Source: Minisyncoccota bacterium
GTDB taxonomy: Bacteria; Patescibacteriota; Minisyncoccia; Phycocordibacterales; Phycocordibacteraceae
Direction of reading: 5' to 3'
Assembly (NCBI GenBank): GCA_035627595.1
Contig: DASPLK010000004.1
Span: 1 to 40,361, forward strand
DNA length: 40,361 nucleotides
In this document: one piece after another, positions 1 through 40,361 of the stretch
How the letters are laid out: every line of letters starts with the position of its first letter
How positions within the stretch are numbered: the stretch's first letter is position 1
The notes under the pieces: generated by a model
The model's database searches: none
Seen by the model: only the letters and a program-made list of their open reading frames with translations
What the model was told of the DNA's origin: nothing
Made by a program: the position numbers and the translations under genes

Positions 1-3000
1 GGTGCCGACGGTCGCGAGGTTTGCGAGCGTGGTGAGGTTCGGAAGCGTGGTGGTTGCAGAGAGGCGGTTGTCGAAGCGGGCGGTGGTCCAGTAGAGGTTC
101 GTGCCTTCTGCAAGATCAGACGTGCTCTTGGTTGCGAGCCATGCGTTAGTGGAAGTAGTCGAGAAGAAGTTGTTCTGCTCTTTCCAGTAAGCTGCGGAGG
201 TCGTCGAGAAGAAGTAGCCCTTGTCGAAGGTGTCGAGGTACGTAAGAACGCGCGCATTTGTGTAATAGAGGTTTGTGCCCTCTGCGAGGTTAGACGTGCT
301 CTTGGTTGCGAGCCATGCGTTGGTGGAAGTAGTCGAGAAGAAGTCAGTCTGACTCTTCCAGTAGGCAGCTGAGGTGGTGCTAAAGGAGTTTGCGAGGTAG
401 TAGCTTCCCTCCTGTCCGTCGAAGGTGCCGGTCCAGTCGCCGGTGACGTCTGCAACGTAGTCCGCACCTGCGGTTGCGAGGGAAAGGACGCCGCTCGTTG
501 CCTTCACAAGACCAGAGCCAAGACCAGAGAACGTAACGGTGCCGGTTGCTGTGATATTCGCGGACGTAATATTGCCCGAGAAGAGCGCATTACCCTGCAC
601 TGCGAGCTTGTGAAGCGGCGACGGCGAGGTAGTCGCGATGCCAATCGTATTGCTGAAGTATGAGGTGCCAAATACTTCGAAGATGCTGTTTGCAGTTGTG
701 GTTGCGCTGCTGCCGATGATCACCGCATCAGAAGTATCGGTCGTGTAGATTGCAAGACTGTCAGTTGTCGTTGCCCATGCACCTTCGCCGCCGCCGCCGC
801 CAGTCGTTATGTCCGATCCCCATGACGGAAGACCGCCCGATAGCTTCAAGACCTGACCATTCGCCCCTTTCGGGAGCGGAGTCAGCGCACCGGCGTTATC
901 GGCGTACAAGATATCGCCCGGGCTGTAGCTAGTCATACCCGTACCGCCCTGATTCTGCGAGACGGTGCCCGTAATATCTGCAAATGCGATACCGAGCGTG
1001 GAGGTTGCGATATTGTTCCAAGCGCTGCCGCTCCAGCTAAGCAGGTTGCCGAACGACTTAGTCATGCTTGCGACATCCGAAAGGTCCTCGATCGAGTTGT
1101 TGGTGAGGTCGTCTGCAGTACGCGCAGTCTGCTGTGTCTCCCAGTAATTTGCGGAGGTCGTAGAGAAGCTGTTTGCGAGGTAGTAGCTTCCCTCCTGTCC
1201 GTCGAAGGTGCCGGTCCAGTCGCCACTCGTATCATCGAGGTAGTCAACGCCTGGGACCGCGATACCGAGCACTCCGCCAGTTGATTTGACGAATCCGTCG
1301 CCGAGGCTGGAGAACGTCACTGTACCGGTCGCCGTCAGTGTGCCGCCAAGGTAGGTGTTGCCTGCAACCGAAAGCTTTGCGAGCGGCGACGTCGTACCGA
1401 CGCCGAAGTTACCGGAGGTGACGTAGACGCCGCCGGTGCCGTTTCCAGCGAGCGAAATGCCGCCATTGAGGTTCGTTGCAGATATGGTGTTGGTCGCAAC
1501 GGTGATATTGCCCGCAGCAATACCGTTCGGGACCGGAAGCGTCGAGAGATCGGAGGTGACGATGCTCTTGCCACCCGTGATGTTTAGGTTGCTCTTGAAG
1601 ATGAGCTGGCCGGTTGCGTTTGCGTTGAGTTCAATGTTACCGCCATCGGTCGTCTTTATCTTGAGGTTCTGAGTCGGATCTGCAGTCACGACGATGTCGG
1701 TGGTCGCATCCTCCTCAAGCACCTTCTGGCCGTTGATGTAGAGCGAGCCTGGACCGATGTATACATCGCGCCACATGCGGCTCGGCGTACCGAGCGAGTA
1801 CACGTTGTCTGCGGTTGGGATGATATCGCCGGCAATCGAGACTTCTTCGAGGTGCGTTGTGCCGGTAATTGTAAAGTCGCCGACGATAGTCGAGGATGCC
1901 TGTGCAAGGATGCCGGAATTAAATGTCTGGAGTGGACCCCAGGTGTTTGCGGTCGTTGTGCCAAACGCAAGCGACAGTACGTTGCTTGAGTACTGGAGCG
2001 GATATGTCGCTGTAAAGGTCGGTGTGAGGCCAAGCGATGAAGTCGCTACATTCGTCCATGCGCTACCGTTCCAGGAAAGTAGATTGCCCCAGCTCTTGGT
2101 CATCGCTGCCACGTCCATTAGGTCCTCGATCGAGTTGTTGGTCAGGTCATCTGCAGTGCGTGCGGTCTGCTGGGTATCCCAGTAGTTTGCGGAGGTCGTT
2201 GAGAAGAAGTAGCCCTTCGATACCGTATCGAGGTAGGTTGCGACGCGACTGTTGCTGTAGAAGAGATTCGTACCGCCCTCAGGGATATCGTCTGAATCAT
2301 TGAGATCGAGATCGAAGTAATTCTGCGTCGCATGATTGCCCCAGCTGTATGCCGTTGCCCATTCGGTCGTCGAAGCTGCAAGCGGGATGGTATAGCCGGC
2401 TGAGAGCGATAGCACACCAGTTGCGCTGTTGTAACTCAAGCCTGCTGCGGAAGAAGAGAGCGCGGCGCGGGCGCGTGCATCGGTGTAGTAGAGGTTGGTT
2501 GATCCCTCAAGGAGCGCATCAGTCGTGGTGCCTGCGAGTGCTGATGCGAAGCGGTTGAGCGTGTAGTAAAGATTCGCACCCTCAGCAATGTCATCGGTGG
2601 ACTTGGTGCCAAGCCACGTGTTTGCGGAGGTCGTTGAGAAGAAGTAGCCCTTGCCGAGCGAATCGACGTACGAAAGGACACGTGCGTCGGTGTAGTAAAG
2701 ATTAGATCCCTCTGCAAGATCATCCGTGCTACGTGTAGCAAGCCAGGAGTTTGCAGAAGACGTAGAGAATGAGTTAGCAAGGTAATACGAACCCTCATAG
2801 CCGTCGAAGGTGCCAGTCCAATCGCCGGTTGCATCAGCAAGATAGTCGACGCCCGGAGTTGCGACCGATATGACGCCTGCATCTGCGCGCAGTAGTCCGT
2901 CAAGCGTACCGAAGCGCGCCTGTCCTGATACGAAGAAATTAGTCGAGGTCGCATTGGTAGTGATGATGTCTGCAAAGTTCGAGACGCCCGTGAAGGTCGG

Positions 3001-5820
3001 TGCGTTCGAGAAAACTACTGATCCCGTACCCACCTCGTCAGAGAGGATGCCAGCAAGCTCTGCTGAGGTGTCGACTTCCGTAGTAAGAAGCACCATCGGA
3101 TCGAGGTATGCAGGCGCGATTGCGGAACCCTGCCATACGCCGCTCGTGATGGTACCGAGCGTCGTGAGACTTGGAAGCGAAGTGATGCCTGTGTGCGTGG
3201 TAGTTGCGTGCCAATCTGAAAGCGAGAACTTTGCATTAAGCGCGTTCTGCAGATCAGTCTGATCGGAGAGCGTGCCGGTAATATCTCCCCACGCAACGCC
3301 CGTAACGAATCCAAAGGAACTGGTCGCTACATTCGTCCATGCGCTACCGTTCCAAGTCAAGAAATCGTTCACATTTGGCGTCATTGAAGCGACATCCGAA
3401 AGATCCTCGATCGAGTTGTTGGTCAGGTCATCTGCAGTGCGTGCGGTCTGCTGGGTCTCCCAGTAGTTTGCGGAGGTCGTTGAGAAGAAGTAGTCCTTGC
3501 TGTAGGTATCAAGAAGCGTTGAGACGCGTGCATCGGTGTAGTAAAGGTTCGTGCCTTCTGCAAGCGCATCAGTAGTAGTTGCAAACCAAGCAGAGAGCGA
3601 AAGCTTAGCGTCAAGCGCGTTCTGCAGGTCGGTCTGGTCGGAAAGCGTGCCGGTGATGTTGCCCCACTCTGCGCTCGTAATACCAAGAGATGAGGTCGCC
3701 ATAAGTGCGTACCCTCCTGTTCCATTGCCAACGAGAAGCTGTCCGAAGACTGGCGCCGTACCTGTGCCAGTACCGCCGTTTGAAACCGGAAGCACATCTT
3801 CTACATCGGTAGCAAGTGAGACGAGTGATGTAGCAATTGCACCTCCGGTTGCACGAAGGATGCCGTTAAGAGAACCAATCGAAAGCGATGGTGTCGTTAG
3901 GGCCCCTGCGGTTGATATCGTTGTCGTGCCCGTTGAACCAAACGCTGCGGAGTTCGACGAGAACGACGTAGCGGTCGCATTACCGAGCTGTAGATCTGAT
4001 GGAAGAGAAAGTGTAACGCCACCTGCGCCGTTGTCAGCTACAGATATCTGGTTTGCTGTACCCGTGACCCAAGTCGAAAGGTCTGTTGAAGTGGCAGCTC
4101 CCGAACTATCCGCAAAGAGCAACCTCGATGGTGTAATCCCTGAAAGACGGAAGATGCCGGACACTGAGAGGTTCGTCGAAGTTGCGTTCGTTGTGGTCGC
4201 ATTTGTAAGCGTTGCATTGGTAGCAGAAAGTGTCGTCACTACAGCATTCGTAATGGTTGCAAGCGTCGATGTGAAAGTATCAATCGTACCGGTTGTTGCA
4301 CGGAAGAGCGTTGCAAAAAGATTCGTTGAGGTTGCGTTTGTGGTGGTCGCATTAGTCGCAAGCAAGTTTGCAAATGTTGATGACGTTGCAAACAAGGTAT
4401 TTACACTAAGCGAATTGCCGGTTGCGGTAGCGAACTGGAGTGGACCTGCAAATGTAGAGGTCGCCGTCGTTGATGTCGCATTAAATGACGGTGCGCTGAT
4501 AGTAGAAGTTACGTTGAGCGTTGCGACATTAAATGTACCCACGGTGAGCTCGCCCGTTATGTTCGCGTCACCGTTAACTGTAATGCCGCCATTTACCGTC
4601 GTCGTACCAGAAGAGAATGAGCCGCCGATGGAGCCGTTGCCGCTAATTGTTATAGAGTCACCAGTGATATCACCGCCAATAGTTCCGCCTCCGCCGTCTA
4701 CATCGATGTCATCAATTCGGTCATAGACGTTAGCAAAGCGCTCATCAAGTGCGTAGAACGACAACCAGACTGGGCGCAGCAAGTACTCACCGAAGCCTGA
4801 GAGTGCGTATGTGAGGAACTCAGCACTAACACCATTCACGGTCGTGCGATTGTCAGTGGCGTTGGTAATGTAGCGCGTTATGTTCTGCGTGATGTTCTGA
4901 ATTGTCGTAGTGCCCTGAACAATCGTAGTCGTTGAATTCAAAGGTGCTGACGTTGTTGCACTTGAAATAGAAACTGGATCTGGAGTATCCACTACGTGCA
5001 CCTGCACGTTTGTGCGGGGAGCGAAGAATGCGGCAACTTTGCGCTCAGTGTCTGCAAAGAAGTTGTCGATGGTTGCGTAGGTAAAATATGCAATCGACTT
5101 TGCCACCTCTACCATTGGCGAAGAGCTATTTGAAGCTGCTGCAGAAAGTGCATTCATCTCTGAGATTGAGCCCTGCGCCTCACGCACGTCCGCAATAGAT
5201 TCTTCTTTCGATGTAAATACTCCTGTAGATGCAGAAACCACTATGAATGTAATAAGGAGCGCGGCAGTTGCGCGAGTGTATGTATGAACAGGATTGTATG
5301 TAAAACGCTGCGCAAAAACTTTACGTGTAACGGTAACGACAGGCTGCACCTCGCGGTATTCATTCTTTCGCTTCTCCGCAAGTTCCTCGTGAAGCTTTTT
5401 CTTCTCCTCCTCTACCTTAGATAGGTGCACCTGGAGGTCATCCGCCTTAATTACCCATGCCTTCCCGTTTCGGGTTGATGGAAGCTCTCCAGAACGGCAA
5501 AGAGAGCTGATGTATGCAGGAGAGTAGCCCGATGCCTTAGCGGCTTCGTAGGTGGAGAGAAGATTCTGTTCTCGGCGCTGAACCTCCCAATACTCATCTT
5601 TACGCTTGCGCGCAAGTTCTTCTGCCTGACGCTTCTTCTCGTCTTCAACTTTTGAAAGATATGCCTTGAGGTCTGATCGTTTGATCATCCATGCCTTCCC
5701 GTTTCGGGTTGATGGAAGCTCTCCAGAACGGCAAAGAGAGCTGATGTATGCAGGAGAGTAGCCCGATGCCTTAGCGGCTTCGTAGGTGGAGAGAAGATTC
5801 TGTGAAGGCTTCGAAGACAT
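1..5820 (-). CDS. Giant membrane-anchored surface protein, first 1,940 codons (C-terminus lies beyond the left edge). Order: two tandem excisionase/MerR-like HTH modules, charged coiled-coil segments, one TM helix, then Thr/Ala/Asn/Gly-rich phage-tail-fibre-like repeats.
   Basis: Absent from the ORF track because there is no stop in the window. My manual minus-strand translation from ATG 5820-5818 stays open for exactly 1,940 codons to base 1 (MSSKPSQNLLSTYEAAKASGYSPAYISSLCRSGELPSTRNGKAWMIKRSDLKAYL...). The hydrophobic segment ATAALLITFIVVSASTGVF is encoded at about 5215-5271. Downstream there are at least 7 copies of an (L/I)xEGxNLY(Y/W)TxAR motif, GDWTGTFDGxEGSYYLANSF modules, SNGGTG / NQGGTG motifs and an ANGQVLK motif, as seen in phage tail fibres. 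All other-frame ORFs in this region are short or are antisense mirrors. Confidence 0.8.
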   Translation of the reverse strand, partial: MSSKPSQNLLSTYEAAKASGYSPAYISSLCRSGELPSTRNGKAWMIKRSDLKAYLSKVEDEKKRQAEELARKRKDEYWEVQRREQNLLSTYEAAKASGYSPAYISSLCRSGELPSTRNGKAWVIKADDLQVHLSKVEEEKKKLHEELAEKRKNEYREVQPVVTVTRKVFAQRFTYNPVHTYTRATAALLITFIVVSASTGVFTSKEESIADVREAQGSISEMNALSAAASNSSSPMVEVAKSIAYFTYATIDNFFADTERKVAAFFAPRTNVQVHVVDTPDPVSISSATTSAPLNSTTTIVQGTTTIQNITQNITRYITNATDNRTTVNGVSAEFLTYALSGFGEYLLRPVWLSFYALDERFANVYDRIDDIDVDGGGGTIGGDITGDSITISGNGSIGGSFSSGTTTVNGGITVNGDANITGELTVGTFNVATLNVTSTISAPSFNATSTTATSTFAGPLQFATATGNSLSVNTLFATSSTFANLLATNATTTNATSTNLFATLFRATTGTIDTFTSTLATITNAVVTTLSATNATLTNATTTNATSTNLSVSGIFRLSGITPSRLLFADSSGAATSTDLSTWVTGTANQISVADNGAGGVTLSLPSDLQLGNATATSFSSNSAAFGSTGTTTISTAGALTTPSLSIGSLNGILRATGGAIATSLVSLATDVEDVLPVSNGGTGTGTAPVFGQLLVGNGTGGYALMATSSLGITSAEWGNITGTLSDQTDLQNALDAKLSLSAWFATTTDALAEGTNLYYTDARVSTLLDTYSKDYFFSTTSANYWETQQTARTADDLTNNSIEDLSDVASMTPNVNDFLTWNGSAWTNVATSSFGFVTGVAWGDITGTLSDQTDLQNALNAKFSLSDWHATTTHTGITSLPSLTTLGTITSGVWQGSAIAPAYLDPMVLLTTEVDTSAELAGILSDEVGTGSVVFSNAPTFTGVSNFADIITTNATSTNFFVSGQARFGTLDGLLRADAGVISVATPGVDYLADATGDWTGTFDGYEGSYYLANSFSTSSANSWLATRSTDDLAEGSNLYYTDARVLSYVDSLGKGYFFSTTSANTWLGTKSTDDIAEGANLYYTLNRFASALAGTTTDALLEGSTNLYYTDARARAALSSSAAGLSYNSATGVLSLSAGYTIPLAASTTEWATAYSWGNHATQNYFDLDLNDSDDIPEGGTNLFYSNSRVATYLDTVSKGYFFSTTSANYWDTQQTARTADDLTNNSIEDLMDVAAMTKSWGNLLSWNGSAWTNVATSSLGLTPTFTATYPLQYSSNVLSLAFGTTTANTWGPLQTFNSGILAQASSTIVGDFTITGTTHLEEVSIAGDIIPTADNVYSLGTPSRMWRDVYIGPGSLYINGQKVLEEDATTDIVVTADPTQNLKIKTTDGGNIELNANATGQLIFKSNLNITGGKSIVTSDLSTLPVPNGIAAGNITVATNTISATNLNGGISLAGNGTGGVYVTSGNFGVGTTSPLAKLSVAGNTYLGGTLTATGTVTFSSLGDGFVKSTGGVLGIAVPGVDYLDDTSGDWTGTFDGQEGSYYLANSFSTTSANYWETQQTARTADDLTNNSIEDLSDVASMTKSFGNLLSWSGSAWNNIATSTLGIAFADITGTVSQNQGGTGMTSYSPGDILYADNAGALTPLPKGANGQVLKLSGGLPSWGSDITTGGGGGEGAWATTTDSLAIYTTDTSDAVIIGSSATTTANSIFEVFGTSYFSNTIGIATTSPSPLHKLAVQGNALFSGNITSANITATGTVTFSGLGSGLVKATSGVLSLATAGADYVADVTGDWTGTFDGQEGSYYLANSFSTTSAAYWKSQTDFFSTTSTNAWLATKSTSNLAEGTNLYYTNARVLTYLDTFDKGYFFSTTSAAYWKEQNNFFSTTSTNAWLATKSTSDLAEGTNLYWTTARFDNRLSATTTLPNLTTLANLATVGT
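118..344 (-). repeat. Intragenic direct repeat: 118-170 and 292-344, 53 bp with 1 mismatch, offset 174 bp (58 codons, in frame).
   Basis: Direct comparison of agacgtgctcttggttgcgagccatgcgtt(a/g)gtggaagtagtcgagaagaagt at both positions. Confidence 0.85.
388..1224 (-). repeat. Intragenic direct repeat: 388-441 and 1171-1224, 54 bp identical, offset 783 bp (261 codons). It encodes GDWTGTFDGQEGSYYLAN. A diverged third copy lies near 2775-2830.
   Basis: gtttgcgaggtagtagcttccctcctgtccgtcgaaggtgccggtccagtcgcc was read at both sites. Confidence 0.85.
2042..3493 (-). repeat. Intragenic direct repeat module. Block 2042-2073 equals 3323-3354 (32 bp). Block 2124-2212 equals 3405-3493 (89 bp, 1 mismatch). 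Offset 1281 bp (427 codons). A more diverged copy starts at 1086 (offset 1038 bp).
   Basis: The same module appears in the ORF track as the + strand antisense peptide SIELLVRSSAVRAVC(W/C)VSQ, present three times (ORFs 965..1147, 1757..2185, 3272..3466). On the coding strand it reads ..YWETQQTARTADDLTNNSIEDL. Confidence 0.85.
5455..5803 (-). repeat. In-frame tandem duplication of the HTH module. The 115-bp blocks 5455-5569 and 5689-5803 are identical by eye, with period 234 bp (78 codons).
   Basis: Both blocks read ccatgccttcccgtttcgggttgatggaagctctccagaacggcaaagagagctgatgtatgcaggagagtagcccgatgccttagcggcttcgtaggtggagagaagattctgt. Each encodes QNLLSTYEAAKASGYSPAYISSLCRSGELPSTRNGKAW. Confidence 0.9.
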
Positions 5821-5834
5821 CCTGAAAGGTACCT

Positions 5835-5863
5835 GAGATATCTATATTTTATATAGCTATCTC
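5835..5863. promoter_or_regulatory. Imperfect palindrome (13-bp arms, 1 mismatch, 3-nt spacer) in the promoter region of the giant gene. It contains the GAGATAGCT box (5855-5863), which abuts a TATATA -10-like hexamer on the coding strand.
   Basis: gagatatctatat-ttt-atatagctatctc lies 15-43 nt upstream of ATG 5820. The same 9-mer is found at 8514-8522 upstream of the second HTH gene. Confidence 0.4.
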
Positions 5864-6212
5864 ACTTCCTCCTACAAAACACGTGGGGATAGTCTTTATA
5901 TATTTATAAAAGATTCCTTATCAAAATAATTTTCTTTTATGTCGTGAGCCGGTGTGCGTGCGTGGAGGTTAGATTTAATCCAGAGCTCCAAAGTCACATC
6001 CCAAGTCAGTTGACTTCAACGTGTATCGAAACTCGCACATTACTCACCAAATAACTCTTATAAAAGCTAATTTCGAATGTAAGTAGGTTGTACTTATCAG
6101 TGAATTCGATTCCTAGAGCCACAGAACCCCTTTCCCTGATTCTTTTGCACCTTATGCTAACAAAGTGGCTTCTTGTAAGTAATGATCCTTCTGCTCTATA
6201 TATACGCGCTGC

Positions 6213-6240
6213 TATCCGAGATTCTCGTTTATCCGAGATT
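6213..6240. repeat. Two direct copies of TATCCGAGATT (6213-6223 and 6230-6240, period 17 bp) in the AT-rich spacer. A third TATCCGAGA lies at 7575-7583.
   Basis: Read directly: gctatccgagattctcgtttatccgagatt. Confidence 0.6.
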
Positions 6241-6341
6241 AAATATGGCTTATTTACACGCAAGTTGAATGTACGCACTTATGCAGGCCCGACTAGTAGA
6301 GCTGGGACGGTACCATCGTGAGGAGACCAATGCAGCTTGAG

Positions 6342-7334
6342 CTAGCGCTTCTCCTGAAGGGTTAGGAAGTCTGCTACAGATGCTGTGGCGGCTCTAGGCG
6401 TGTCACCAAGTACATCTGATGTCAACTGTATTACTCCTAAAGTAGCGCCGGCTATTTCGCCTCCTAGGGCATTTTGTATCTGTCCGCTTTCTGATCTTAT
6501 GCCCTGTGATGCTTTCAGCATTCCCTCCCCAATTGCTATTTGGGGCACAACAATCATACGCGCGAGCTCGTGTGCGGTGTCTATCCAAAGCGTAACTACT
6601 GGCATCTCCTCAAGCTTCAACCCAGGAATTCCCTTTGCTGCAACTGCGATCGTGGAATCACCAATCATGTACGCGCTTTGCACCGCAGTACTAGCTACAT
6701 ACTGAGTGCCATCCACCCATGCATAAAGGCCGCTTATATAGGCACCCATAGCCTTATGTTGAATATCTAAAATTCTACGCATGAGTACCTCTGAGACAGC
6801 AATGTAAGGGTCTGCTGCAATCCAGATAACGCGCGACATGCTCTCAAAGTGCTCATCGCTTACTTTCATTACTATTGCATGCTCTTTGTCAGGTAGATGG
6901 CTTTCCCTTGGCTCAAAATTAGCCAATAAAGGTCGCTCTTCTGCGTAAAGAGGCTGTTCAATGGGAACTAAGTTGATATAAGGGACGAAAAGGCCTTCCA
7001 GACCAGACGAGAATGAGAAATACGAGCTCGCACCACCACTAGCTGGCAAACTTTCGACGTCTGTATTTGCGGCGGCCACAGAAGCCATATGTGCGCTAGC
7101 GCGCTTAGGTATTTGAGCGATTTCTCCACGCACACCTTCAACTAAGCTAATAAGCCGATTTCCGGCATCGATTGAAGCGAGCTCTACAATTGCGGAGTGA
7201 GCAGTGAACATTGATCCAAAAAGTACTGATACCGCGACAAGGAAGGAAAAAGCATGGCCGCGAAATATATCTAAATTCGCATGTCCCGAGCTATAGGCAG
7301 GATACGTTTTGGAGCTAAGTGTTCCGGAGGTCAT
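6342..7334 (-). CDS. Hypothetical protein with an N-terminal signal-anchor; no family recognised.
   Basis: The track ORF 6342..7532 begins with TTG only 4 nt after a terminator T-tract. The first ATG is at 7334 (MTSGTLSSKTYPAYSSGHANLDIFRGHAFSFLVAVSVLFGSMFTAHS...), which gives about 330 aa with one hydrophobic helix. I recognise no conserved motif. Confidence 0.55.
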   Translation of the reverse strand: MTSGTLSSKTYPAYSSGHANLDIFRGHAFSFLVAVSVLFGSMFTAHSAIVELASIDAGNRLISLVEGVRGEIAQIPKRASAHMASVAAANTDVESLPASGGASSYFSFSSGLEGLFVPYINLVPIEQPLYAEERPLLANFEPRESHLPDKEHAIVMKVSDEHFESMSRVIWIAADPYIAVSEVLMRRILDIQHKAMGAYISGLYAWVDGTQYVASTAVQSAYMIGDSTIAVAAKGIPGLKLEEMPVVTLWIDTAHELARMIVVPQIAIGEGMLKASQGIRSESGQIQNALGGEIAGATLGVIQLTSDVLGDTPRAATASVADFLTLQEKR

Positions 7335-7535
7335 GCGTGTAATAGGGAGCAAAAGGGACTGTAGATTAATACTAGCCTGTGCGAGAGCATGAAGCCTGTG
7401 CAATTTGTGGATAGAGCAAATTAAAACCTGATTGCTCGCAGGACAACTAACATACAATTTGGTCTGAAGTAGGGGACACACAGCAAAGGATCCGTGCCTT
7501 CGTTGGAGAGGCTTACATCTTTCACAAACCAAAGT

Positions 7536-7563
7536 AAAAAACGCGCCACTCGGCGCGTTTTTT
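7536..7563. terminator. Bidirectional intrinsic terminator downstream of the HTH-TM gene.
   Basis: aaaaaacgcgcc-actc-ggcgcgtttttt: a 7-bp GC stem flanked by an A6 run and a T6 run. Confidence 0.8.
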
Positions 7564-7567
7564 ACTA

Positions 7568-7601: not shown

Positions 7602-8501
7602 CTATTCAATTATTACCGTTCCTGCAAAGAACCGGATCATTGAAGACTCAACCCCTGCATTTCTTACATAAGCATCTGCAATACCTGAACCAATGACAGC
7701 AATAACTACAGCTAGTACGGCCACCGCAACGAACGCAGCTCGAAGCGAAAGACTCGACTTCCCTGCTACTGGACGGCGCGCATTTTTAGCCGCAGGAGCA
7801 ATTGCCCTTCTCTCCGAGCGCGGCGTTCCCCCAACTAGGCGTATCTCAGGGCTCGCAGGGCGCATTGACTCATAGGTACGGCGCATGGGCACGTCTTCCT
7901 CTATCTCATCGGTGAAAGGCACAGGGTCATACTCAGGAGCTGGTTCCTCATCTTTAAGTACCGACTTTTCTTCTTCTACGCGATGCAAGATAACGGGCGA
8001 TACCTCATAGGGATCCTCTATTTGTGTCTCTGCTCTAGAAATTTCCTCTTGAGACGAGCTTCCAGACGAGGCCGACTCCTGCTGTCGGGTTGCAAACCAC
8101 TCGCGCCATGCGGACTGCATATCCTCAACTGAGCTAGTTACAGGCTCCACAATTGGCTCATCGGCAGCCTTAGAACTCAATTCCTGCCTACCATCAAGCA
8201 AATTTATACTCCGCCTTTCCAGCACAGGAACCGTAGTAGCATCCTCAACCTCATACTTAGGCGGCTCCCATGTAGGTATGGGGTCTGGGCTAGAAACAGC
8301 CTTATCTGCCTTTACATCCTCAGAACCAAACCTATGTGCCCTAATAGAAGTCTCAAGCACGTACCAGCTCCGACCCACGAGGGTGGCTTCAACCCTACCC
8401 TCCCTGCAAAGCTGACCAATATAATCCTTCGCATATCCAGTAATCTCGGCCGCGCGCTTTGACGAGATATAAATCTTGTCACCAATAGTAAGCTCATTCA
8501 T
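7602..8501 (-). CDS. Tail-anchored HTH protein: N-terminal excisionase/MerR-like HTH, long acidic low-complexity linker, C-terminal TM helix.
   Basis: 299 aa. The N-terminus ISSKRAAEITGYAKDYIGQLCREGRVEATLVGRSWYVLETSIRAH aligns with the giant protein's STYEAAKASGYSPAYISSLCRSGELPSTRNGKAWMIKRSDLKAY (AA..GY..YI..LCR.G......G..W). The TM segment is LRAAFVAVAVLAVVIAVIGSGI, near residues 250-275. Confidence 0.8.
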   Translation of the reverse strand: MNELTIGDKIYISSKRAAEITGYAKDYIGQLCREGRVEATLVGRSWYVLETSIRAHRFGSEDVKADKAVSSPDPIPTWEPPKYEVEDATTVPVLERRSINLLDGRQELSSKAADEPIVEPVTSSVEDMQSAWREWFATRQQESASSGSSSQEEISRAETQIEDPYEVSPVILHRVEEEKSVLKDEEPAPEYDPVPFTDEIEEDVPMRRTYESMRPASPEIRLVGGTPRSERRAIAPAAKNARRPVAGKSSLSLRAAFVAVAVLAVVIAVIGSGIADAYVRNAGVESSMIRFFAGTVIIE

Positions 8502-28793: not shown

Positions 28794-30158
28794 TCAGCGT
28801 ACGACAAGTGCTGCACTACAGGCAAGCAAATTCCCAAACAGGCATAAAAGCCAGGTGGGTGTGTTTGAGGAGACCAATGCCGCCCCCACTGCAGCTTGTT
28901 GAGCAGCTGCAGTGGGGGCTTCTATGACCTCTTCATATGACTGCGTTGCGACAGGTGCTAGTAAATCGACCATTCTCATCTCTTGTATACCGCCTGTGCG
29001 GACTATAGGTTTCTGAGCCGCTATAGGCGTCGCGTTCATTTCCTCTACAATGGCCGGTTCAGCGACCGCTACCGTCTCCCCTTTCGGGAACAAAAGCGAT
29101 ATCGGCGTACCCGTTGCGAGTCCTGTCACCTCTGTAGCGAACACGACCGAACTTCCCGGCCAGAGCGCGGTATCGTCTGGGAACACGAAAGCACCCTCTC
29201 CTGCTGCTAGTTGCCACTGTGACAGATCAACGAGACGTTGCCCAATATTGGTAACTCGTATTCCGGCTGTTTCTGTCGCCACATCTATCGCCGCGTTCTC
29301 CACGACGACTTTGAGCGTGCGCAACACCTCTGCCTCTTTATGCGTAGCGCGAACGATGAGCGCGTATTCTCCGGGAGCACGGTACGCGTGTTCGACCGCT
29401 TTGCCTTCCGCGCGTGTGCCGTCCCCAAAGCTCCACGTGACCTTAGCGTCCTCAATTGCACGCTCGTTTTTGCTGTATATGACAGCCGTATAAGGAGTAG
29501 GTACTTGCGCGAGCACAATGCGATCGTTACCCGCATCTATTGAAATGGTACGTCGAGGGCTCTGTACGTGCGAACTCGTCGATGGAGCCGTACCCCCTAC
29601 GGTAACGACCGGCGTTGTTGTGCCGGTCTCATCCTCTTCTTCGTCATCTGCTTCATCTTCGTTTCCACCAATTATGTTTACTGCTCGCGGTGTGGGCGTA
29701 CCTGTCGACCACAAAGAGCCGTTCCGCTGTGGTGTCGCTTTCGTACTGTTATTGCCGCCGATGTTCTTCCAGTCTGTACCCCCAACGACCGTGTCTATTG
29801 CGGCCCCGGACGAGTCCGTAAGTGTAAGCGTGCTGCCATCGTTACTTAATGCGCCCGTGTAGACCTTGTCCGCCTGTATATCCGGTACGGTGGCATCGTC
29901 CGTGCGTTCAAGTAGATAGTACCCGCCGGCGGCGATAGAGCCCGTGAGCGTAATGTTAGGCGCCGTGCCCGAAGATGTAATGGTCCAGCCAGAAAGCGAA
30001 ACTTCCTCCGTTCCGTCATTGTAGAGTTCTATCCATTCATCGGTATCGCTTACCGACGTGCCCATCCACGCTATCTCGCTGATGACGACCCCTGCGTGCG
30101 CTGCGCTTGGCGCAATTAGTGTCGACAGCACGAGTAGCGAGATGAGTCGGTTAGACAT
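28794..30158 (-). CDS. Secreted, C-terminally membrane-anchored protein: signal peptide, lamin-tail domain (LTD), acidic linker, PKD domain, second LTD-like domain, C-terminal TM helix.
   Basis: Start at MSNRLISLLVLSTLIAPSAAHA (ATG 30158). LTD pattern VVISEIAWMGTSVSDTDEWIELYNDGTEEVSLSGWTI. PKD pattern VTWSFGDGTRAEGKAVEHAYRAPGEYALIVRA. C-terminal helix TWLLCLFGNLLACSAALVV. The sequence ATGTCTAA gives an 8-nt overlap with the upstream stop. Confidence 0.8.
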   Translation of the reverse strand: MSNRLISLLVLSTLIAPSAAHAGVVISEIAWMGTSVSDTDEWIELYNDGTEEVSLSGWTITSSGTAPNITLTGSIAAGGYYLLERTDDATVPDIQADKVYTGALSNDGSTLTLTDSSGAAIDTVVGGTDWKNIGGNNSTKATPQRNGSLWSTGTPTPRAVNIIGGNEDEADDEEEDETGTTTPVVTVGGTAPSTSSHVQSPRRTISIDAGNDRIVLAQVPTPYTAVIYSKNERAIEDAKVTWSFGDGTRAEGKAVEHAYRAPGEYALIVRATHKEAEVLRTLKVVVENAAIDVATETAGIRVTNIGQRLVDLSQWQLAAGEGAFVFPDDTALWPGSSVVFATEVTGLATGTPISLLFPKGETVAVAEPAIVEEMNATPIAAQKPIVRTGGIQEMRMVDLLAPVATQSYEEVIEAPTAAAQQAAVGAALVSSNTPTWLLCLFGNLLACSAALVVR

Positions 30159-31866
30159 TGTCCTTGAAGATGGCGCGCAGCGTATCCTCGGGAACTTCAA
30201 ATGGTTGTGGTCCCTCTTGCCGCGGCGCTGACTCTCTGCGCTCTTGTCTTTGCTCAGAGCGCGGAAGCTCCTTATTTCGCGGATGCGCTGGAAGCTCTTT
30301 GGCACGCGGACGTTCCGGTAGCTCTGTCCCCTGGATGACCTCTTTGAGTGCAGTCTTAATGCCTGACTGATGCTTTTTTTCCTCTCCCTGCTTCTCCCTT
30401 TTCGCGCCTTCAGACATGCTGCGAAGTATTGCCTTCAAATCATCGGCACTTTTTGGAGTTGGTTCTGGCCGCTTAGGCGCGGGTTCTGCGCGCGGCGGTA
30501 CATCGCGCCTAGGCGCAGGCTTCTTCTGTCCGTCCCAACGCTTCTTCTCTGCAGGCGGCTCAGGCGGAATGTCCGCGGTCGCGGCCAGCTCTGAGAATAT
30601 AAGCCCCTCAACGGTCTCGCGCGGCGTCGCGAACTGGCGTCGTGAAGACTCTAGGACCTCGTTCCGGAACGTGCGTGCAGGCGCTTCGATAGGCGGTATG
30701 GTGACTGCGGAGAACGGGCGGGAGCCAACGCCATCGATCATAAGGGAGAGATAGATCTGCGTCTTGCCGAGGTTCACAATATCCTCCTTCATAAATTCCG
30801 GGGAGAAAACTGTCTCGAGCACCTCTGCATCGAACGGACCGACGCGGAACGAGACCGTGCTGCCGACGTTGCCGAACACAGCAGCACGCACCTCCTCCTC
30901 CATCTGCTCCACGTACTGGTGCGCGATGATCAGATTTAGCTTGTACTTGCGGGCCTCAGAAAGGATCTCAGCGAACGTCTCGTTCGCGAAGTTCTGGAAC
31001 TCGTCCACATAGAAATAGAAGTTTGGAAGCTTTGCGATATCGTGCGCCGAAAGGTCGGCACGGCTCATCGCCGCAAGGAAGATGCGCGTCGTAATCATAG
31101 AACCGAGGAGCTTCATGTTCGTATCGCCAACGAGACCCTTGGAGAGATTGATCAGAATAATCTTCTTCTGGTCCATCGCTTCGCGTATATCGAAGGAAGA
31201 CTTCGGCTGGCCGATAATATTGCGGATGAGGGGGTTTGAGGTGAACTGGCCGATCTTATTCTGGATTGCAGGGGTCGCTTCCTGCGTGTAGCGATCGGTA
31301 TACGTCGCGAACTCCTTTACCCAGAAGTCCTTTACCAAGGGGTCCTTCACATTCTCAACCACCTTCTTGCGGTACGCCTTGTCGGTATACATGCGGTTCA
31401 CGCCCATCAGTGTTGCGTCCGGATACTCAAGAAGCGCGAGGAGTGTGTTGGAGAGGATGTACTCCATGCGGGCGCTCCACGCATCCACCCAGATCTTTTT
31501 GAAGGTCGCCATGAGGCCCGAAACCACGAGGTGTCGCTTGTCGTACCCGACGTCCTCCATGACGTTGAACGCGACCGGGTTCTCCATATCAAACGGCGCG
31601 AAATAGACAACGTCCTGGATGCGGTTCTCCGGTATGTACTCAAGGAGTGCGTCCACCGCACTTCCGTGTGGGTCGATGAATGCAAGACCTTCCCCGTTCC
31701 GGATGTCCTGGATGGCCATGTTCTCGAGGAGGGTCGACTTACCCATACCCGTCTTCCCGATGACGTACATGTGGCGGTCGCGGTCGCGACTTTTAATGCC
31801 GAACGGCACGCGCTTACCGCGGGAATCGGTTGCTGCAAAGTACGTGATCCGATCCGGATTATCCAT
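30151..31866 (-). CDS. Soluble TraD/VirD4/TrwB-family (type IV coupling-protein-like) P-loop NTPase with a charged, Pro-rich, presumably disordered C-terminal tail of about 170 aa.
   Basis: 571 aa. Walker A VIGKTGMGKST and Walker B FYFYVDEFQNF, plus IIAHQY. No N-terminal TM helices. The tail contains KELP repeats (ELPERPRAKELPAHPRNKELPRSEQ). Confidence 0.7.
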   Translation of the reverse strand: MDNPDRITYFAATDSRGKRVPFGIKSRDRDRHMYVIGKTGMGKSTLLENMAIQDIRNGEGLAFIDPHGSAVDALLEYIPENRIQDVVYFAPFDMENPVAFNVMEDVGYDKRHLVVSGLMATFKKIWVDAWSARMEYILSNTLLALLEYPDATLMGVNRMYTDKAYRKKVVENVKDPLVKDFWVKEFATYTDRYTQEATPAIQNKIGQFTSNPLIRNIIGQPKSSFDIREAMDQKKIILINLSKGLVGDTNMKLLGSMITTRIFLAAMSRADLSAHDIAKLPNFYFYVDEFQNFANETFAEILSEARKYKLNLIIAHQYVEQMEEEVRAAVFGNVGSTVSFRVGPFDAEVLETVFSPEFMKEDIVNLGKTQIYLSLMIDGVGSRPFSAVTIPPIEAPARTFRNEVLESSRRQFATPRETVEGLIFSELAATADIPPEPPAEKKRWDGQKKPAPRRDVPPRAEPAPKRPEPTPKSADDLKAILRSMSEGAKREKQGEEKKHQSGIKTALKEVIQGTELPERPRAKELPAHPRNKELPRSEQRQERRESAPRQEGPQPFEVPEDTLRAIFKDNV

Positions 31867-38195: not shown

Positions 38196-38271
38196 TGGTG
38201 CAAGTGGTAGGATTCGAACCTACGACCGCTCGAGTATCAGTCGAGTGCTCTACCAACTGAGCTACACTTGC
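38196..38271 (-). tRNA. tRNA-Ile (anticodon GAU), CCA encoded.
   Basis: The minus strand folds by hand as GCAAGTG-TA-GCTC-AGTTGGTA-GAGC-A-CTCGA-CTGATAC-TCGAG-CGGTC-GTAGG-TTCGAAT-CCTAC-CACTTGC-A-CCA. All four stems are Watson-Crick paired, and the total is 76 nt. Confidence 0.9.
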
Positions 38272-38490
38272 CTGTCCTTAGACTCATGGATACTAACAGA
38301 AAGACCTGGGCTTTTCCAGCGTCTCATCTATAGTAATGGGAAGGATGATACACCGCGGTACAACCCGGGAATCCAAAGGCCTCCGGCTTCGGAGGGACTC
38401 CACTATCGATGATAAATACCGTCGGCATCGCAATAAGATGCGCATTTGGCGCCGGTGCGTGAAGAAAATAGATACGCAGGCCGTGCCAGC

Positions 38491-38526
38491 GTAAAGACAA
38501 AGCGCCCCAGCAAAGCCAGGGCGCTC
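38491..38526 (-). terminator. Intrinsic terminator after the small ORF.
   Basis: The minus strand reads AGCGCCCTGG-CTTTG-CTGGGGCGCT (10-bp stem including 2 G-U pairs), followed by TTGTCTTT. Confidence 0.6.
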
Positions 38527-38550
38527 GAGACGCACACGAGGTGCGCTTGG

Positions 38551-38766
38551 TCAGCTCAACGGATATGGCGGCGATTCATAGTAGCGCCATTTGCTGATGC
38601 GTTCGTCAGTGGGAAGAAGCTTGTGCTCCTGAACCCACATCTTTCGCTTGCCGCGCTTGACTCGATACCAGTAACCGTTGTAACCGGAGTGCCACCAGCG
38701 CGTGAACGCAGAAGGCATCGCAGTACGTCCGGCGTTCGAGCCGACATTCAAAGAACTCATTGTCAT
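38551..38766 (-). CDS. Small basic, Trp/Tyr-rich hypothetical protein (71 aa).
   Basis: ATG start, with sequence ...FTRWWHSGYNGYWYRVKRGKRKMWVQEHKLL...KWRYYESPPYPLS. It is followed within about 25 nt by a terminator and preceded by TATAAT at 38818-38823. No family recognised. Confidence 0.4.
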   Translation of the reverse strand: MTMSSLNVGSNAGRTAMPSAFTRWWHSGYNGYWYRVKRGKRKMWVQEHKLLPTDERISKWRYYESPPYPLS

Positions 38767-38843
38767 GCACTACCCTTTGCTCAGAAATGACAGGAATGCG
38801 CGGAGCGCGACTTATCAATTATAACAGTAAAGTATTATGAAGT

Positions 38844-39344
38844 CTAGTCCACTGTAACGACAACACTATCCTCCCAGTCTGTAATTGGCTCATCCGCGGG
38901 TCCAGGATGCCAGAGAGTGACAATAATTGTGTATGCGCCTGGCTCCTTGTACGTGTGCGTTTTGACGCTCTGGGAGCAACTTTCTCCCTCTGATTCCGCC
39001 TCAAACAGCGGTTCTGTTGTTCCGTCTCCCCACTCTACGGAGAGGCCATTGCCGCCGGGTCCAAACCAGCCGACCGAGATGACGCAGGAATCGATCTTCT
39101 CAAGAACGGGCGCAGGACCCGTTATAGTCACGGTTCTTCCGTTTACCTCAGCATCCAATCCGCGCGAGCCAGAATAGATAGTTCCCTGCGCACTCTGTCC
39201 CACAACCTCCGCTTCCTGCGAAGGCGCCTCTACTACAGGCGCTATGACCTCCGGGCGCGGGGTCTGCGTATATATAAACGCCAGCGTTATCAAAAGCACG
39301 GTGCCGGCAAGTGAAGCAGCAACAAGACGTGGATGCTCTTTCAT
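38844..39344 (-). CDS. Membrane-anchored or secreted PKD-domain protein.
   Basis: 166 aa. N-terminal helix LVAASLAGTVLLITLAFIY, then PKD-like VEWGDGTTEP...HTYKEPGAYTIIVTLW. Confidence 0.7.
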   Translation of the reverse strand: MKEHPRLVAASLAGTVLLITLAFIYTQTPRPEVIAPVVEAPSQEAEVVGQSAQGTIYSGSRGLDAEVNGRTVTITGPAPVLEKIDSCVISVGWFGPGGNGLSVEWGDGTTEPLFEAESEGESCSQSVKTHTYKEPGAYTIIVTLWHPGPADEPITDWEDSVVVTVD

Positions 39345-39350
39345 ATCTAT

Positions 39351-39356
39351 AGTATA
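39351..39356 (-). promoter_or_regulatory. -10-like TATACT exactly 6 nt upstream of ATG 39344.
   Basis: The coding strand reads GGCCTATACT-ATAGAT-ATG. Confidence 0.4.
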
Positions 39357-39370
39357 GGCCTCAAATGCCT

Positions 39371-39410
39371 AAAACGCACAACAGCCCCGGGTGGGGCTGT
39401 TGTGTCTTTT
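39371..39410. terminator. Strong bidirectional intrinsic terminator closing the 16S transcription unit.
   Basis: aaaacg-cacaacagcccc-gggt-ggggctgttgtg-tctttt: a perfect 12-bp stem with U-tracts in both orientations. Confidence 0.8.
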
Positions 39411-39557
39411 CACTAAATAGTTCGATTCTAGAAGGAGTGTTGAGTGCTCTTGTGTTCCGCCTATTCAGGACTGAGAAGTTCAATTGAGACTTCCCAGTAT
39501 CCTACCGGTTCGTTTTTCCGGCGTCCGGGTACCATTTAGGGATTAGTACCATTTCCC

Positions 39558-39635
39558 CTAGGTAGCTGCATGTCGGGAGCTATCAATAGAAAGACAAGTC
39601 CTTCTGAAAATAACTCCCAACATGCAGCCACCTAG
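39558..39635 (-). ncRNA. Long rod-like hairpin in the 16S 3' trailer or intervening sequence. A 25-bp outer stem (39558-39582 with 39611-39635) and an 8-bp inner stem (39588-39595 with 39598-39605).
   Basis: All four non-Watson-Crick positions are G-U on the minus-strand RNA and would be A-C mismatches on the plus strand. This indicates a structure selected in the same orientation as the 16S. Confidence 0.6.
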
Positions 39636-39670
39636 ATCGACGTGAGTGTCATTCCTGACATCTCGTTCCG

Positions 39671-40361
39671 ATTGGATATGTTCCACGACCAGCTTCCGCT
39701 AGCCGTGCCTTGTTACGACTTACTCCCTGTCATTGAATTTGCCGTAGTCCTGGACAAGCCAAGATGTCGGGCACCTCCAACTTCCTTGAGTTGACGGGCG
39801 GTGAGTACAAGACTCGAGAACGTATTCACCGTAGTATGGCTGACCTACGATTACTAGTGATTCCGGCTTCAAGAGGTCGGTTGCAGACCTCTATCCGTAC
39901 TGGGGTCGGTTTTTGGGATTTGCTCCACCTTGCGGTATTGCTTCCTTCTGTACCGACCATTGTATCACGTGTGCAGCCCAGGGCATCAAGGGACATGCTG
40001 ATTTGGCGTCATCCTCACCTTCCTCCCCCGTGAGGGGGCAGTCTCGCCTGACATAAGTAACAGACAACGAGGGTTGCGTTCGTTACCCCACTGAAGGGAA
40101 CAGCTCAAGCCACGAACTGACGACAACCATGCATCACCTGCCAAGCACCCTCGAAGGCTTCCTCCGTTTCTGGAGGCGTGCAGCTTGGTTTCTAGCCCTG
40201 GTAAGGTTCTTCGCTTAGCTACGAATTAAGCCACATGATCCACCACTTGTGCGAGTCCCCGTCTATTCCTTTGAGTTTTAAGCTTGCGCTCGTACTACCC
40301 AGGCGGCTCGCTTACCGCGTTAGCTTAGCCTCGCAGAGGGTCGATACTCCGCAAAGCGAGC
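39671..40361 (-). rRNA. rrs: 16S rRNA gene, 3' portion (about E. coli position 850 to the 3' end). The 5' part lies beyond the right edge. The 3' boundary is uncertain and could extend to about 39427 if the trailer is an excised insertion.
   Basis: Reverse complements of universal sites are present: ccgtctattcctttgagttt (40259-40278, 907R-like), gggttgcgttcgtt (40071-40084), gacgggcggtgagtacaag (39793-39811, 1392R-like) and ccttgttacgactt (39708-39721, 1492R-like). Helix 45 reads CACGGCUAGC-GGAA-GCUGGUCGUG (39684-39707). Confidence 0.9.

Follow-up and report, generated by a model that had tools for sequence, protein, structure and literature searches.

The locus and the giant gene

The stretch of DNA analysed here (the window) comprises 40,361 nucleotides (nt) of contig DASPLK010000004.1, from assembly GCA_035627595.1 of a Minisyncoccota bacterium, and it carries at one edge the 5' part of a giant gene whose product combines helix-turn-helix (HTH) modules, a single hydrophobic helix and a very long region resembling phage tail fibres. 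The window is cellular DNA, with a partial 16S rRNA gene at its end and a tRNA-Ile gene, and it also holds gatB, obg, secA, murB, Mur ligases, sugar-nucleotide enzymes and glycosyltransferases. Along the direction of transcription, the gene order is secA, obg, gatB, a gene for a protein of 299 amino acids (aa), a gene for a protein of 330 aa and the giant gene, which is read from the minus strand (1..5820), starts at ATG 5820 and leaves the window at its edge. A preliminary description, made from the DNA letters, had supposed a Candidate Phyla Radiation (CPR) organism, and the organism is indeed a Candidatus Paceibacterota.

Translation of 5820..1 on the minus strand gave 1,940 sense codons and zero stops, while the remaining five frames of this interval contain 44–119 stops each; the probability of so long a stop-free frame, calculated from base composition, is about 1e-33. 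Since an in-frame TAG lies 21 nt 5' of ATG 5820, this ATG is the earliest possible start. The gene is absent from the list of open reading frames (ORFs) because ORFs running off the source edge are dropped. The preliminary description had read the frame as open for 1,940 codons, had explained its absence from the list by the want of a stop in the window, and had concluded that the gene is longer than 5.8 kb; the re-translation agrees on the first two points, and the third is borne out by a 16.1-kb gene (5,368 aa) in a JGI assembly with the same first 1,940 residues.

In a second assembly (ENA ERZ27252484, locus L001), reached via the upstream 299-aa protein, the frame extends for 2,330 codons, again to the contig end. 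Clustering at 90% identity places two further proteins, P0347 and P0346, with the window protein. The former (JGI/IMG) has the full 5,368 aa and is encoded on a 360,173-bp contig; its residues 1–1940 equal the window translation at all 1,940 positions, and it differs from L001 by a single residue in 2,330. The latter (NCBI HYE22981.1; 1,157 aa; 313,628-bp contig) is named 'tail fiber domain-containing protein, partial [Candidatus Paceibacterota bacterium]', and it is exactly the C-terminal end of P0347. Therefore, the window holds the 5' 36% (1,940 of 5,368 codons) of the 16.1-kb gene, and P0346 represents its 3' end. The assemblies break within the gene because of internal repeats: one copy of a 215-nt repeat with 90% identity (L001 18331–18545 and 19375–19589) spans the end point of the window, the second stops about 84 nt short of the ENA contig end, and many further DNA repeat families lie within the gene. 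An exact 47-mer from the ENA contig end had no match in JGI metagenomes.

The N-terminal winged helices

At its N-terminus the giant protein carries two HTH modules of the excisionase/MerR class, namely module 1 at residues 9–56 (5653..5796, minus strand) and module 2 at residues ~87–134 (5419..5562, minus strand). Pfam HTH_17 (PF12728) matches twice, with an E-value of 1.2e-17 and 64.3 bits (cut-off 27), and the excisionase-family DNA-binding model TIGR01764 ('excise') matches two stretches with 43.5 bits (cut-off 28.8), which places the protein above both curated cut-offs for these families. Module 2 corresponds to the second HTH_17 stretch and is also recognized by a family hidden Markov model (HMM) with a domain E-value of 1.7e-24. 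PHROG excisionase and DNA-binding families match the N-terminus as well. A search with the N-terminal 330 aa against a 5.8-billion-protein database returned nothing at E <= 1e-3, because a 50-aa domain is too short for a database of this size.

An AlphaFold2 (AF2) model of residues 1–215, built with an alignment of 20 homologous N-termini, reached a mean predicted local distance difference test (pLDDT) value of 88.3, with ~97 in each HTH module. Module 1 comprises a strand (residues 9–11), two helices (12–19 and 23–32) and two further strands (37–40 and 43–47), and the pattern appears again at residues 87–125, from the strand at 87–89 to that at 121–125. The model fits a winged helix of the MerR/Xis type, with a strand, two helices, a two-strand wing and then a long helix rich in Glu, Lys and Arg. 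The first of these charged helices spans residues 48–85 (5566..5679, minus strand) and ends in L..R..EY, which is conserved among homologues; the second spans residues 126–158 (5347..5445, minus strand) and is joined by a low-confidence linker to a helix at residues 177–203.

Foldseek comparison of this model with the PDB returned TraN of pIP501, which has two excisionase-like HTH modules and binds dsDNA, as well as BldC–DNA complexes (TM-score to the target 0.77–0.80; root-mean-square deviation, rmsd, 1.2–1.7 Å), the RacA–DNA complex (TM-score to the target 0.66, rmsd 2.1 Å), Pukovnik Xis (TM-score to the target 0.73), the excisionase RdfS and the MerR-family proteins NmlR and SoxR. When a family sequence profile was compared with the PDB, the sole match was the TraN-like protein AM32, and it was weak (E 0.017). 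Two excisionase/MerR-like HTH modules with charged helices had been proposed in the preliminary description, and Pfam, TIGR01764, AF2 and Foldseek agree on them; the modelled fold is a winged helix whose structural neighbours bind DNA.

Behind both modules lies a tandem repeat (5447..5803; family D7) of 123 nt, 98% identical, with a period of 234 nt (copies 5447–5569 and 5681–5803), and the two modules are therefore the product of a recent tandem duplication. The HTH cores are basic, with a median isoelectric point of 9.4 and a net positive charge in 30 of 33 family segments; across these 33 segments, Lys or Arg occupies HTH position 31 in 97% and is also common in the wing. Of the 33 segments, 26 keep a cysteine in the recognition helix ('LCR'). 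In the giant protein, Cys30 (~5731–5733) and Cys108 (~5497–5499) are two of six cysteines in 5,368 aa and the only ones within the first 4,397 residues.

The membrane helix

A single transmembrane (TM) helix follows at residues 177–203 (5212..5292, minus strand), with its hydrophobic core at residues 184–202, where the preliminary description had placed it; both Kyte-Doolittle hydropathy and the AF2 helix support it. With 19-residue windows and a threshold of 1.6, one segment was obtained, running from residues 183–186 to 201–204 with a peak of 1.99, and residues 184–202 are the only segment above this threshold in the full 5,368 aa too. The flanks of the helix are rich in Arg and Lys on the N-terminal side and acidic on the C-terminal side. 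In a comparison of 44 homologues, Lys plus Arg were more numerous on the N-terminal flank in 27 and fewer in 4. According to the positive-inside rule, these flanking charges place the N-terminus inside and the C-terminus outside, so that a bitopic, N-in/C-out membrane protein is predicted from the sequence.

The ectodomain and its C-terminal end

The remainder of the window (1..5211, minus strand) encodes the first 1,737 residues of the ectodomain, which is rich in Thr, Ser, Gly, Ala and Asn and built from repeated modules, recognizable as protein motifs and as the DNA repeats D1–D6 and D8. The window part of the protein contains 17% Thr, 12% Ser, 11% Ala and 10% Gly. At least seven copies of (L/I)xEGxNLYYTDAR had been reported in the preliminary description; seven occurrences are found with the relaxed motif [LIP]xEGx(1-2)N[LQ][YF][YWF][TS], but the strict form occurs only twice. 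The SNGGTG and ANGQVL motifs and the GDWTGTFDG modules that it also named are present, once, once and three times, respectively; TADDLTNNSIEDL is found three times and QGGTG once.

The relationship of this region to phage structural proteins was revealed by several comparisons. A tblastn search with residues 641–1940 against 50,697 phage genomes matched 140 records, nearly all of them T4-like cyanophages, with 35–39% identity over a short stretch (~150–185 codons) per phage protein. In Synechococcus phage ACG-2014d, the match is a 2,058-aa 'structural protein' encoded directly 5' of the gp13 neck gene. Among the PHROGs, the window part matches phrog_697 'structural protein' (5.6e-12) and phrog_2952 'minor tail protein' (3.3e-9), and the C-terminal part matches phrog_18983 'tail fiber protein' (3.6e-13).

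The C-terminal 1,157 aa contain a Peptidase_S74 domain (PF13884, 'chaperone of endosialidase') with 26.2 bits (cut-off 22), matched at residues 836–886 of P0346, which correspond to 5047–5097 of P0347. Position 1 of the S74 profile falls on Ser5045, in the context NTS(5045)TKAAK with a Lys at +5, and this S-x4-K pattern, which we take to be the catalytic dyad of S74 in endosialidase and T5 pb1, is kept in six CPR homologues. In those two phage proteins, folding of the trimer starts at the C-terminus under the action of the S74 domain, which then cleaves itself off at that serine. The domain and its Ser-x4-Lys dyad thus imply, from sequence, a trimeric and self-cleaving fibre with autoproteolytic release of the chaperone. 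Past the S74 match, residues ~5100–5368 of P0347 comprise a short coiled-coil-like stretch, a beta-rich segment and an acidic tail rich in Pro and Glu (~270 residues in all); 240–315 residues lie beyond the S74 match in all six CPR homologues examined.

No sensor domain was found by Pfam or NCBIfam in the window part, a 1,880-aa middle stretch and the C-terminal 1,157 aa, a coverage that leaves out residues 1941–2330. Comparison of the whole protein with PDB sequences gave chance nanobody matches only and no relative. Taken together, the architecture put forward in the preliminary description, with a tandem cytoplasmic HTH, one TM helix and a huge tail-fibre-like ectodomain, stands, its topology being a prediction.

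Against genome contigs, residues 1–700 had two local fibre-module matches and no same-species genome. These matches, L007 10001–12154 ('uncultured Gammaproteobacteria') and L008 651–797 ('Lentisphaerae'), are 59–61% identical to fibre residues ~560–700, and they could reflect misbinning or the sharing of modules beyond CPR.

Recurrence of the architecture

A search with the 2,330-aa sequence returned 80 giant homologues of 1,295–4,051 aa, whose named sources are almost all Patescibacteria, Parcubacteria or Paceibacterota, and many of which carry Peptidase_S74, Ig-like, Gly_rich_2 or LVIVD domains. About 38 of the 80 have an HTH of the same type at residues ~10–70, followed by one hydrophobic helix at ~95–240. 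Most of the others begin with a signal-peptide-like helix instead of the HTH foot. Since around half of the homologous fibres thus have a plain signal or anchor, the fibre can do without the HTH.

The HTH itself was pursued with a profile built from 33 segments and an exhaustive search of 1.84 billion representative proteins, which yielded 16,050 representative clusters at E <= 1e-3, 5,916 at 1e-10 and 459 at 1e-30. Every one of the best 148 matches has two tandem HTH modules, and it is plain that the tandem HTH is not unique to the giant gene. Proteins of up to 450 aa make up 133 of these 148, and in 119 of them a TM helix follows the HTH modules (median start 249), with ~50 residues beyond it. 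The other 15 are larger (476–7,214 aa; giants 2,732–7,214), and all have two HTH modules and a hydrophobic helix, 12 of them a single one. The commonest form of the module is accordingly near-fibreless, with HTH, linker, TM helix and ~25–50 residues outside, and this is evidence against the fibre as a 'sensor'. In the medium-sized tandem-HTH proteins (476–1,155 aa), Pfam recognized HTH_17 only and no alternative type of ectodomain.

The presence of the layout in ~38 of the 80 giants and in 15 further representatives argues that it is not an accident of annotation or assembly. The preliminary description had asked whether the same HTH-TM-fibre architecture occurs in CPR genomes, and it does; the order of parts, which it called unusual, is so in general but common within Paceibacterota. 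Source names of the relatives, all Candidatus Paceibacterota, include 'tail fiber domain-containing', 'immunoglobulin-like domain-containing', 'trimeric autotransporter adhesin' and 'helix-turn-helix domain-containing'. A word-indexed HTH search returned fragments of up to 132 aa only, many of them 'partial' or on contigs below 2 kb, and was uninformative on architecture. Genes of the HTH-TM-fibre family seem often to break short-read assemblies.

The neighbouring genes and their conservation

The 299-aa protein encoded upstream (7602..8501, minus strand) is a small membrane protein with a paralogous HTH, as judged by the family HMM and Kyte-Doolittle hydropathy. It consists of the HTH, an acidic, Pro-rich linker of ~190 aa, a TM helix at residues 257–275 (Kyte-Doolittle 2.77 at 257) and ~25 residues outside. 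Its HTH matches the family HMM with E-values of 1.8e-21 and 4.1e-23 in two scans, being the only other match across the six frames of the window, and reaches 17.8 bits with Pfam HTH_17, under the cut-off. NCBIfam recognized in the small HTH-TM proteins only a generic excisionase domain, and no curated HTH-TM family was found there.

The order Obg and/or GatB, small HTH-TM protein and giant HTH-TM protein is found in five genomes, namely the window and the loci L004, L005, L011 and L012. The giants of the latter four are P0007 (L004; 3,381 aa), P0034 (L005; 4,051 aa; GCA_007376385.1), P0002 (L011; GCA_028286505.1) and P0024 (L012; 3,447 aa; GCA_002378745.1). In each of these four loci, the small HTH-TM orthologue lies directly 3' of gatB and has 260–374 aa with one or two HTH modules. 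By eye, the HTH modules of the small proteins are far more alike across genomes than those of the giants, and from their sequences the small proteins look like a separate, well-conserved orthologue.

This conservation also bears on the possibility that an error of assembly or gene calling joined an excisionase gene to a prophage tail-fibre gene, or that the gene belongs to an integrated phage. Both the excisionase-type HTH and the tail-fibre modules are typical of phage, and the contig ends within the giant gene at repeats. However, the gene is one continuous ORF in three independent assemblies (window, ENA L001 and JGI P0347), dozens of divergent homologues share the architecture, and a TM helix lies between the two parts. 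As for a phage-encoded virion part, the neighbours in the five genomes are housekeeping and envelope genes whose synteny is conserved, and the other ORFs scanned with Pfam matched housekeeping or envelope families, none of them specific to phages. An artefact or prophage remnant is thus highly improbable, and this explanation was rejected on the grounds of the assemblies, the homologues, the intervening helix and the synteny.

Between the two HTH genes lies the gene for the 330-aa protein (6342..7334, minus strand; called in L001), which has one N-terminal hydrophobic helix (Kyte-Doolittle 1.85 at residue 32) and no match in Pfam or NCBIfam. A 396-aa version of this ORF, with a TTG start, failed an exact look-up, and the real start is an internal ATG. 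At the corresponding place, gene calling gave nothing in L004, L011 and L012, so that the 330-aa protein may be lineage-specific; in L005, a 224-aa gene lies upstream of the small HTH-TM gene instead. The link of the 330-aa protein to the small HTH-TM and giant genes is uncertain. Directly after the 299-aa gene there is a strong, terminator-like hairpin (7533–7566, minus strand; 15 pairs, 7 of them G-C) followed by a T-run, which suggests that this gene is transcribed apart from the genes downstream.

A near-palindrome upstream of the giant gene

An imperfect palindrome, TGAGATAGCTATAT-AAA-ATATAGATATCTCA, lies at 5834..5864 on the minus strand (inverted repeat I1), 14–44 nt 5' of ATG 5820, with 14-nt arms that are 93% complementary. 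Its core, GCTAT-N7/8-TAGATA, occurs once in the 40-kb window (chance expectation 0.01) and recurs at the matching place in L004 (5958–5991) and L005 (~5955–5985). The element of the giant-gene upstream region is also written CGAAATAGCTA...TAGATAAATCG.

In an alignment of the 80–90 nt 5' of the giant gene from the five syntenic loci, a block CCGAAATAGCTAT-TAAAATATAGATAAATCG with 18 invariant columns was obtained, and its copies in L011 and L012 lie no more than 60 nt from the start codon. To the eye, the sequence of the outer arms varies by locus, yet their complementarity is kept (GAG/CTC, ACG/CGT and CGAC/GTCG). About 25 nt 5' of the palindrome stands a TATCCCCA box (5884..5891, minus strand), which takes the form T(T)ATCC(C/A)CA in the orthologous loci. 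A scan with the sigma-70 consensus found no promoter on the strand of the giant gene 5' of ATG 5820. From its sequence, the element could be an operator, part of a promoter or a hairpin of the 5' untranslated region.

Comparison with known systems

The ectodomain has its closest counterparts in the S74 phage fibres and tailspikes, such as the K1F endosialidase, T5 pb1 and the GA-1 neck appendage, with which it shares the C-terminal S74 domain and the Ser-x4-Lys pattern. It also resembles phage tail fibres in its PHROG tail-fibre families, in the modules rich in Thr, Ser, Gly and Asn that are common to virion proteins of T4-like cyanophages, and in its polarity, the N-terminus being the attachment end and the C-terminus the distal end. 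Unlike these fibres, however, the giant gene is cellular and stands among housekeeping genes, and its product begins with a cytoplasmic HTH and a TM helix rather than an adaptor to a baseplate or particle. With 5,368 aa it has several times the typical length, and ~270 residues follow the S74 domain. Another comparison is with trimeric autotransporters and large repetitive adhesins, which are likewise very long, repetitive and, as is probable here, trimeric surface fibres, and one source does label a relative 'trimeric autotransporter adhesin'. In contrast to those adhesins, the giant protein has no YadA-type anchor (none is expected in the CPR envelope), its anchor is N-terminal and in the cytoplasmic membrane, and its trimerization would presumably be achieved by a phage-type S74 chaperone.

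The cytoplasmic part recalls BldC of Streptomyces, Xis, RdfS and TraN, which have the same small winged-helix fold and share membership of HTH_17 and TIGR01764; TraN and AM32 additionally have two such modules per chain and bind dsDNA. These proteins differ from the giant in being small and soluble, and none is fused to a TM helix or an extracellular domain. RacA of Bacillus subtilis is similar in its MerR-like winged helix followed by a long helix, and in the idea of fastening DNA to the envelope. It is a soluble protein that reaches the membrane through DivIVA and anchors the chromosome in sporulation, whereas the anchor of the giant is a covalent TM helix, and a relationship at the sequence level was not found.

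The preliminary description had compared the protein with membrane one-component regulators of the ToxR/CadC type, to which TcpP may be added. The likeness lies in the N-terminal cytoplasmic DNA-binding domain (by predicted topology), the one TM helix and the extracytoplasmic C-terminal part. On this model, the giant would be a contact sensor in which binding or pulling of the fibre, transmitted through the TM helix, or proteolytic release of the foot, switches transcription upon host contact. The layout is the same as in the ToxR-type regulators, and the conserved, locus-specific near-palindrome close to the start codon could be the operator. However, the HTH modules are of the excisionase/MerR class and in tandem, not winged helices of the OmpR/PhoB type (no Trans_reg_C match was reported by Pfam in the giant protein), and no recognizable sensor domain was found; the outside part is a giant fibre, or almost nothing in the paralogue. 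The commonest members of the family have only ~50 residues outside, so that sensing by a fibre is impossible for them, and a plain signal or anchor takes the place of the HTH foot on about half of the homologous fibres. To our knowledge, there is no precedent for a signal passing along a fibre of ~5,000 residues and one helix. Membership of the ToxR/CadC family is therefore not supported, on account of the HTH class, the lack of a sensor domain in the parts scanned, the HTH-less fibres and the near-fibreless paralogues, and a contact sensor appears quite unlikely.

RodZ offers a different precedent, as it is bitopic and has a cytoplasmic N-terminal HTH. Its HTH is of the XRE type, its outer domain is DUF4115, and the HTH binds MreB, a protein, rather than DNA. 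By analogy, the foot may not bind DNA at all and may act as a protein adaptor of the RodZ–MreB kind, or as an aid to assembly or topology that clusters the fibres or keeps the N-terminus inside during export. In addition to the example of RodZ, whose HTH attaches to the cytoskeleton, this model is in line with the exchange of the HTH module for a plain signal or anchor on homologous fibres, and with the small paralogue kept beside housekeeping genes in the five syntenic genomes, which suggests a structural cellular role. On the other hand, the HTH cores are basic, Lys or Arg being conserved in both the recognition helix and the wing; every one of the nearest structures is DNA-bound, and the families that match in Pfam, TIGR and PHROG are DNA-binding excisionases. 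The HTH of the giant is not of the XRE type (HTH_3 and HTH_31 remained below the Pfam cut-offs), and no match to the RodZ outer domain was reported. A foot that does not bind DNA is regarded as unlikely.

Proposed mode of action

The interpretation favoured here is that of a membrane-rooted, phage-fibre-like adhesin with a DNA-binding foot that serves as a tether or acts on its own operator. As a whole, this package is considered somewhat probable; confidence in the fibre is much higher, and that in the exact role of the foot much lower. In this model, the chain would be inserted N-in/C-out, presumably via the Sec pathway, and three chains would form a fibre, folding from the S74 end, and then shed the chaperone. 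The extracellular part would comprise ~5,150 residues, with the distal C-terminal end as the binding tip, and the 'baseplate' end of the fibre would be the cell membrane, crossed by one helix per chain. The fibre would probably be used for adhesion to a partner cell or surface, which is the obvious use because CPR bacteria are generally thought to be attached to other cells.

With two winged helices per chain, a trimer would carry six, placed on charged helical spacers beneath the membrane. This foot would bind DNA at the base of the fibre, an assumption favoured by the neighbours BldC, TraN and RacA and by the locus-specific near-palindrome. BldC forms head-to-tail multimers on DNA. The likeliest targets would be bulk nucleoid DNA and the near-palindrome that precedes the start codon of the giant gene itself, singly or together. 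The foot may thus be a DNA–envelope tether and/or a feedback clamp on its own promoter, similar to RacA, BldC and TraN, rather than a ligand-gated sensor of the ToxR type, and the small HTH-TM neighbour would be a near-fibreless foot, probably acting at the same sites. The DNA-bound structural neighbours of the model, namely BldC, RacA and TraN, favour an envelope–DNA tether, which the preliminary description had named as a second possible role, over sensing of the ToxR type.

Several points weigh against this interpretation. The topology is a prediction from hydropathy and the charge rule. The AF2 monomer of residues 1270–1800 (26-row alignment) was poor, with a pLDDT of 54.7, and because of this the fibre fold is deduced from sequence families. 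The S74 domain lies outside the window and is known via a member of the identical-sequence cluster, not from this contig. DNA binding, trimerization, cleavage and surface exposure are likewise inferred, and an HTH on a bitopic protein can, by analogy with RodZ, bind a protein instead of DNA. Given the half of the homologous fibres that are without a foot, the HTH may not be tied to the function of the fibre. The near-palindrome, which is supported by five orthologous sequences, could also be read as a promoter or an RNA hairpin; the upstream sequences of L003 (a non-syntenic paralogue) and L010 lack the exact core, and nothing comparable to the block could be seen in them.

Significance

CPR bacteria (Patescibacteria) are thought to live attached to other cells, and the attachment structures of Paceibacterota are largely unknown. 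The giant protein is a concrete candidate for such attachment, as a fibre of more than 5,000 residues made of phage tail-fibre parts and rooted in a membrane rather than in a virion, and it would stand as a clear example of the S74 fibre-assembly logic of phages in use by a cell. Singly, its parts are already known, that is, the S74 phage-type fibre, the excisionase-type HTH and the bitopic HTH proteins. No paper on a CPR protein with the HTH-TM-fibre layout emerged from the literature searches; one 2026 preprint (10.64898/2026.03.03.709456) makes passing mention of a 'tail fibre-like protein', unexamined there, close to a CPR pilus operon.

The main interest lies in the size of the uncharacterized HTH-TM family and in the directly testable operator hypothesis. 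It may tentatively be suggested that the HTH-TM foot represents a large, undescribed family of membrane-anchored DNA-binding proteins of the excisionase/MerR type across Paceibacterota, coupling the chromosome to the envelope of these ultra-small cells. If this were true, the giant members would clamp the chromosome, or their own operator, to a trimeric host-contact fibre of phage origin, at its base, and assembly of the fibre or load on it could feed back on DNA organization or on the fibre's own expression. The stand-alone tandem excisionase-type HTH in a conserved small membrane protein next to gatB points to an unstudied DNA–envelope linkage in very small cells. Because internal repeats break short-read assemblies into 'partial' fragments at contig ends, the size and frequency of such genes in metagenome-assembled genomes are probably underestimated.

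Other features of the window

Two further regions of the window deserve mention. The ORF at 28794–30305 (minus strand) encodes a protein of the secreted type that combines a Lamin Tail Domain with PKD domains; it adjoins a VirD4/TrwB-like coupling-protein ATPase (30151–31866, minus strand) with TrwB_AAD_bind and TraG-D_C domains. The two ORFs share 155 nt, and the GTG assigned as the start of the downstream one is therefore probably too far upstream. The region 38196–40361 (minus strand) holds the 3' part of the 16S rRNA gene (39671–40361), then ~1.4 kb with a small ORF that has a weak PKD match, and the tRNA-Ile gene. This is followed by PrcB_C and Mur ligases with no 23S gene, so the rRNA genes appear to be unlinked at this spot.

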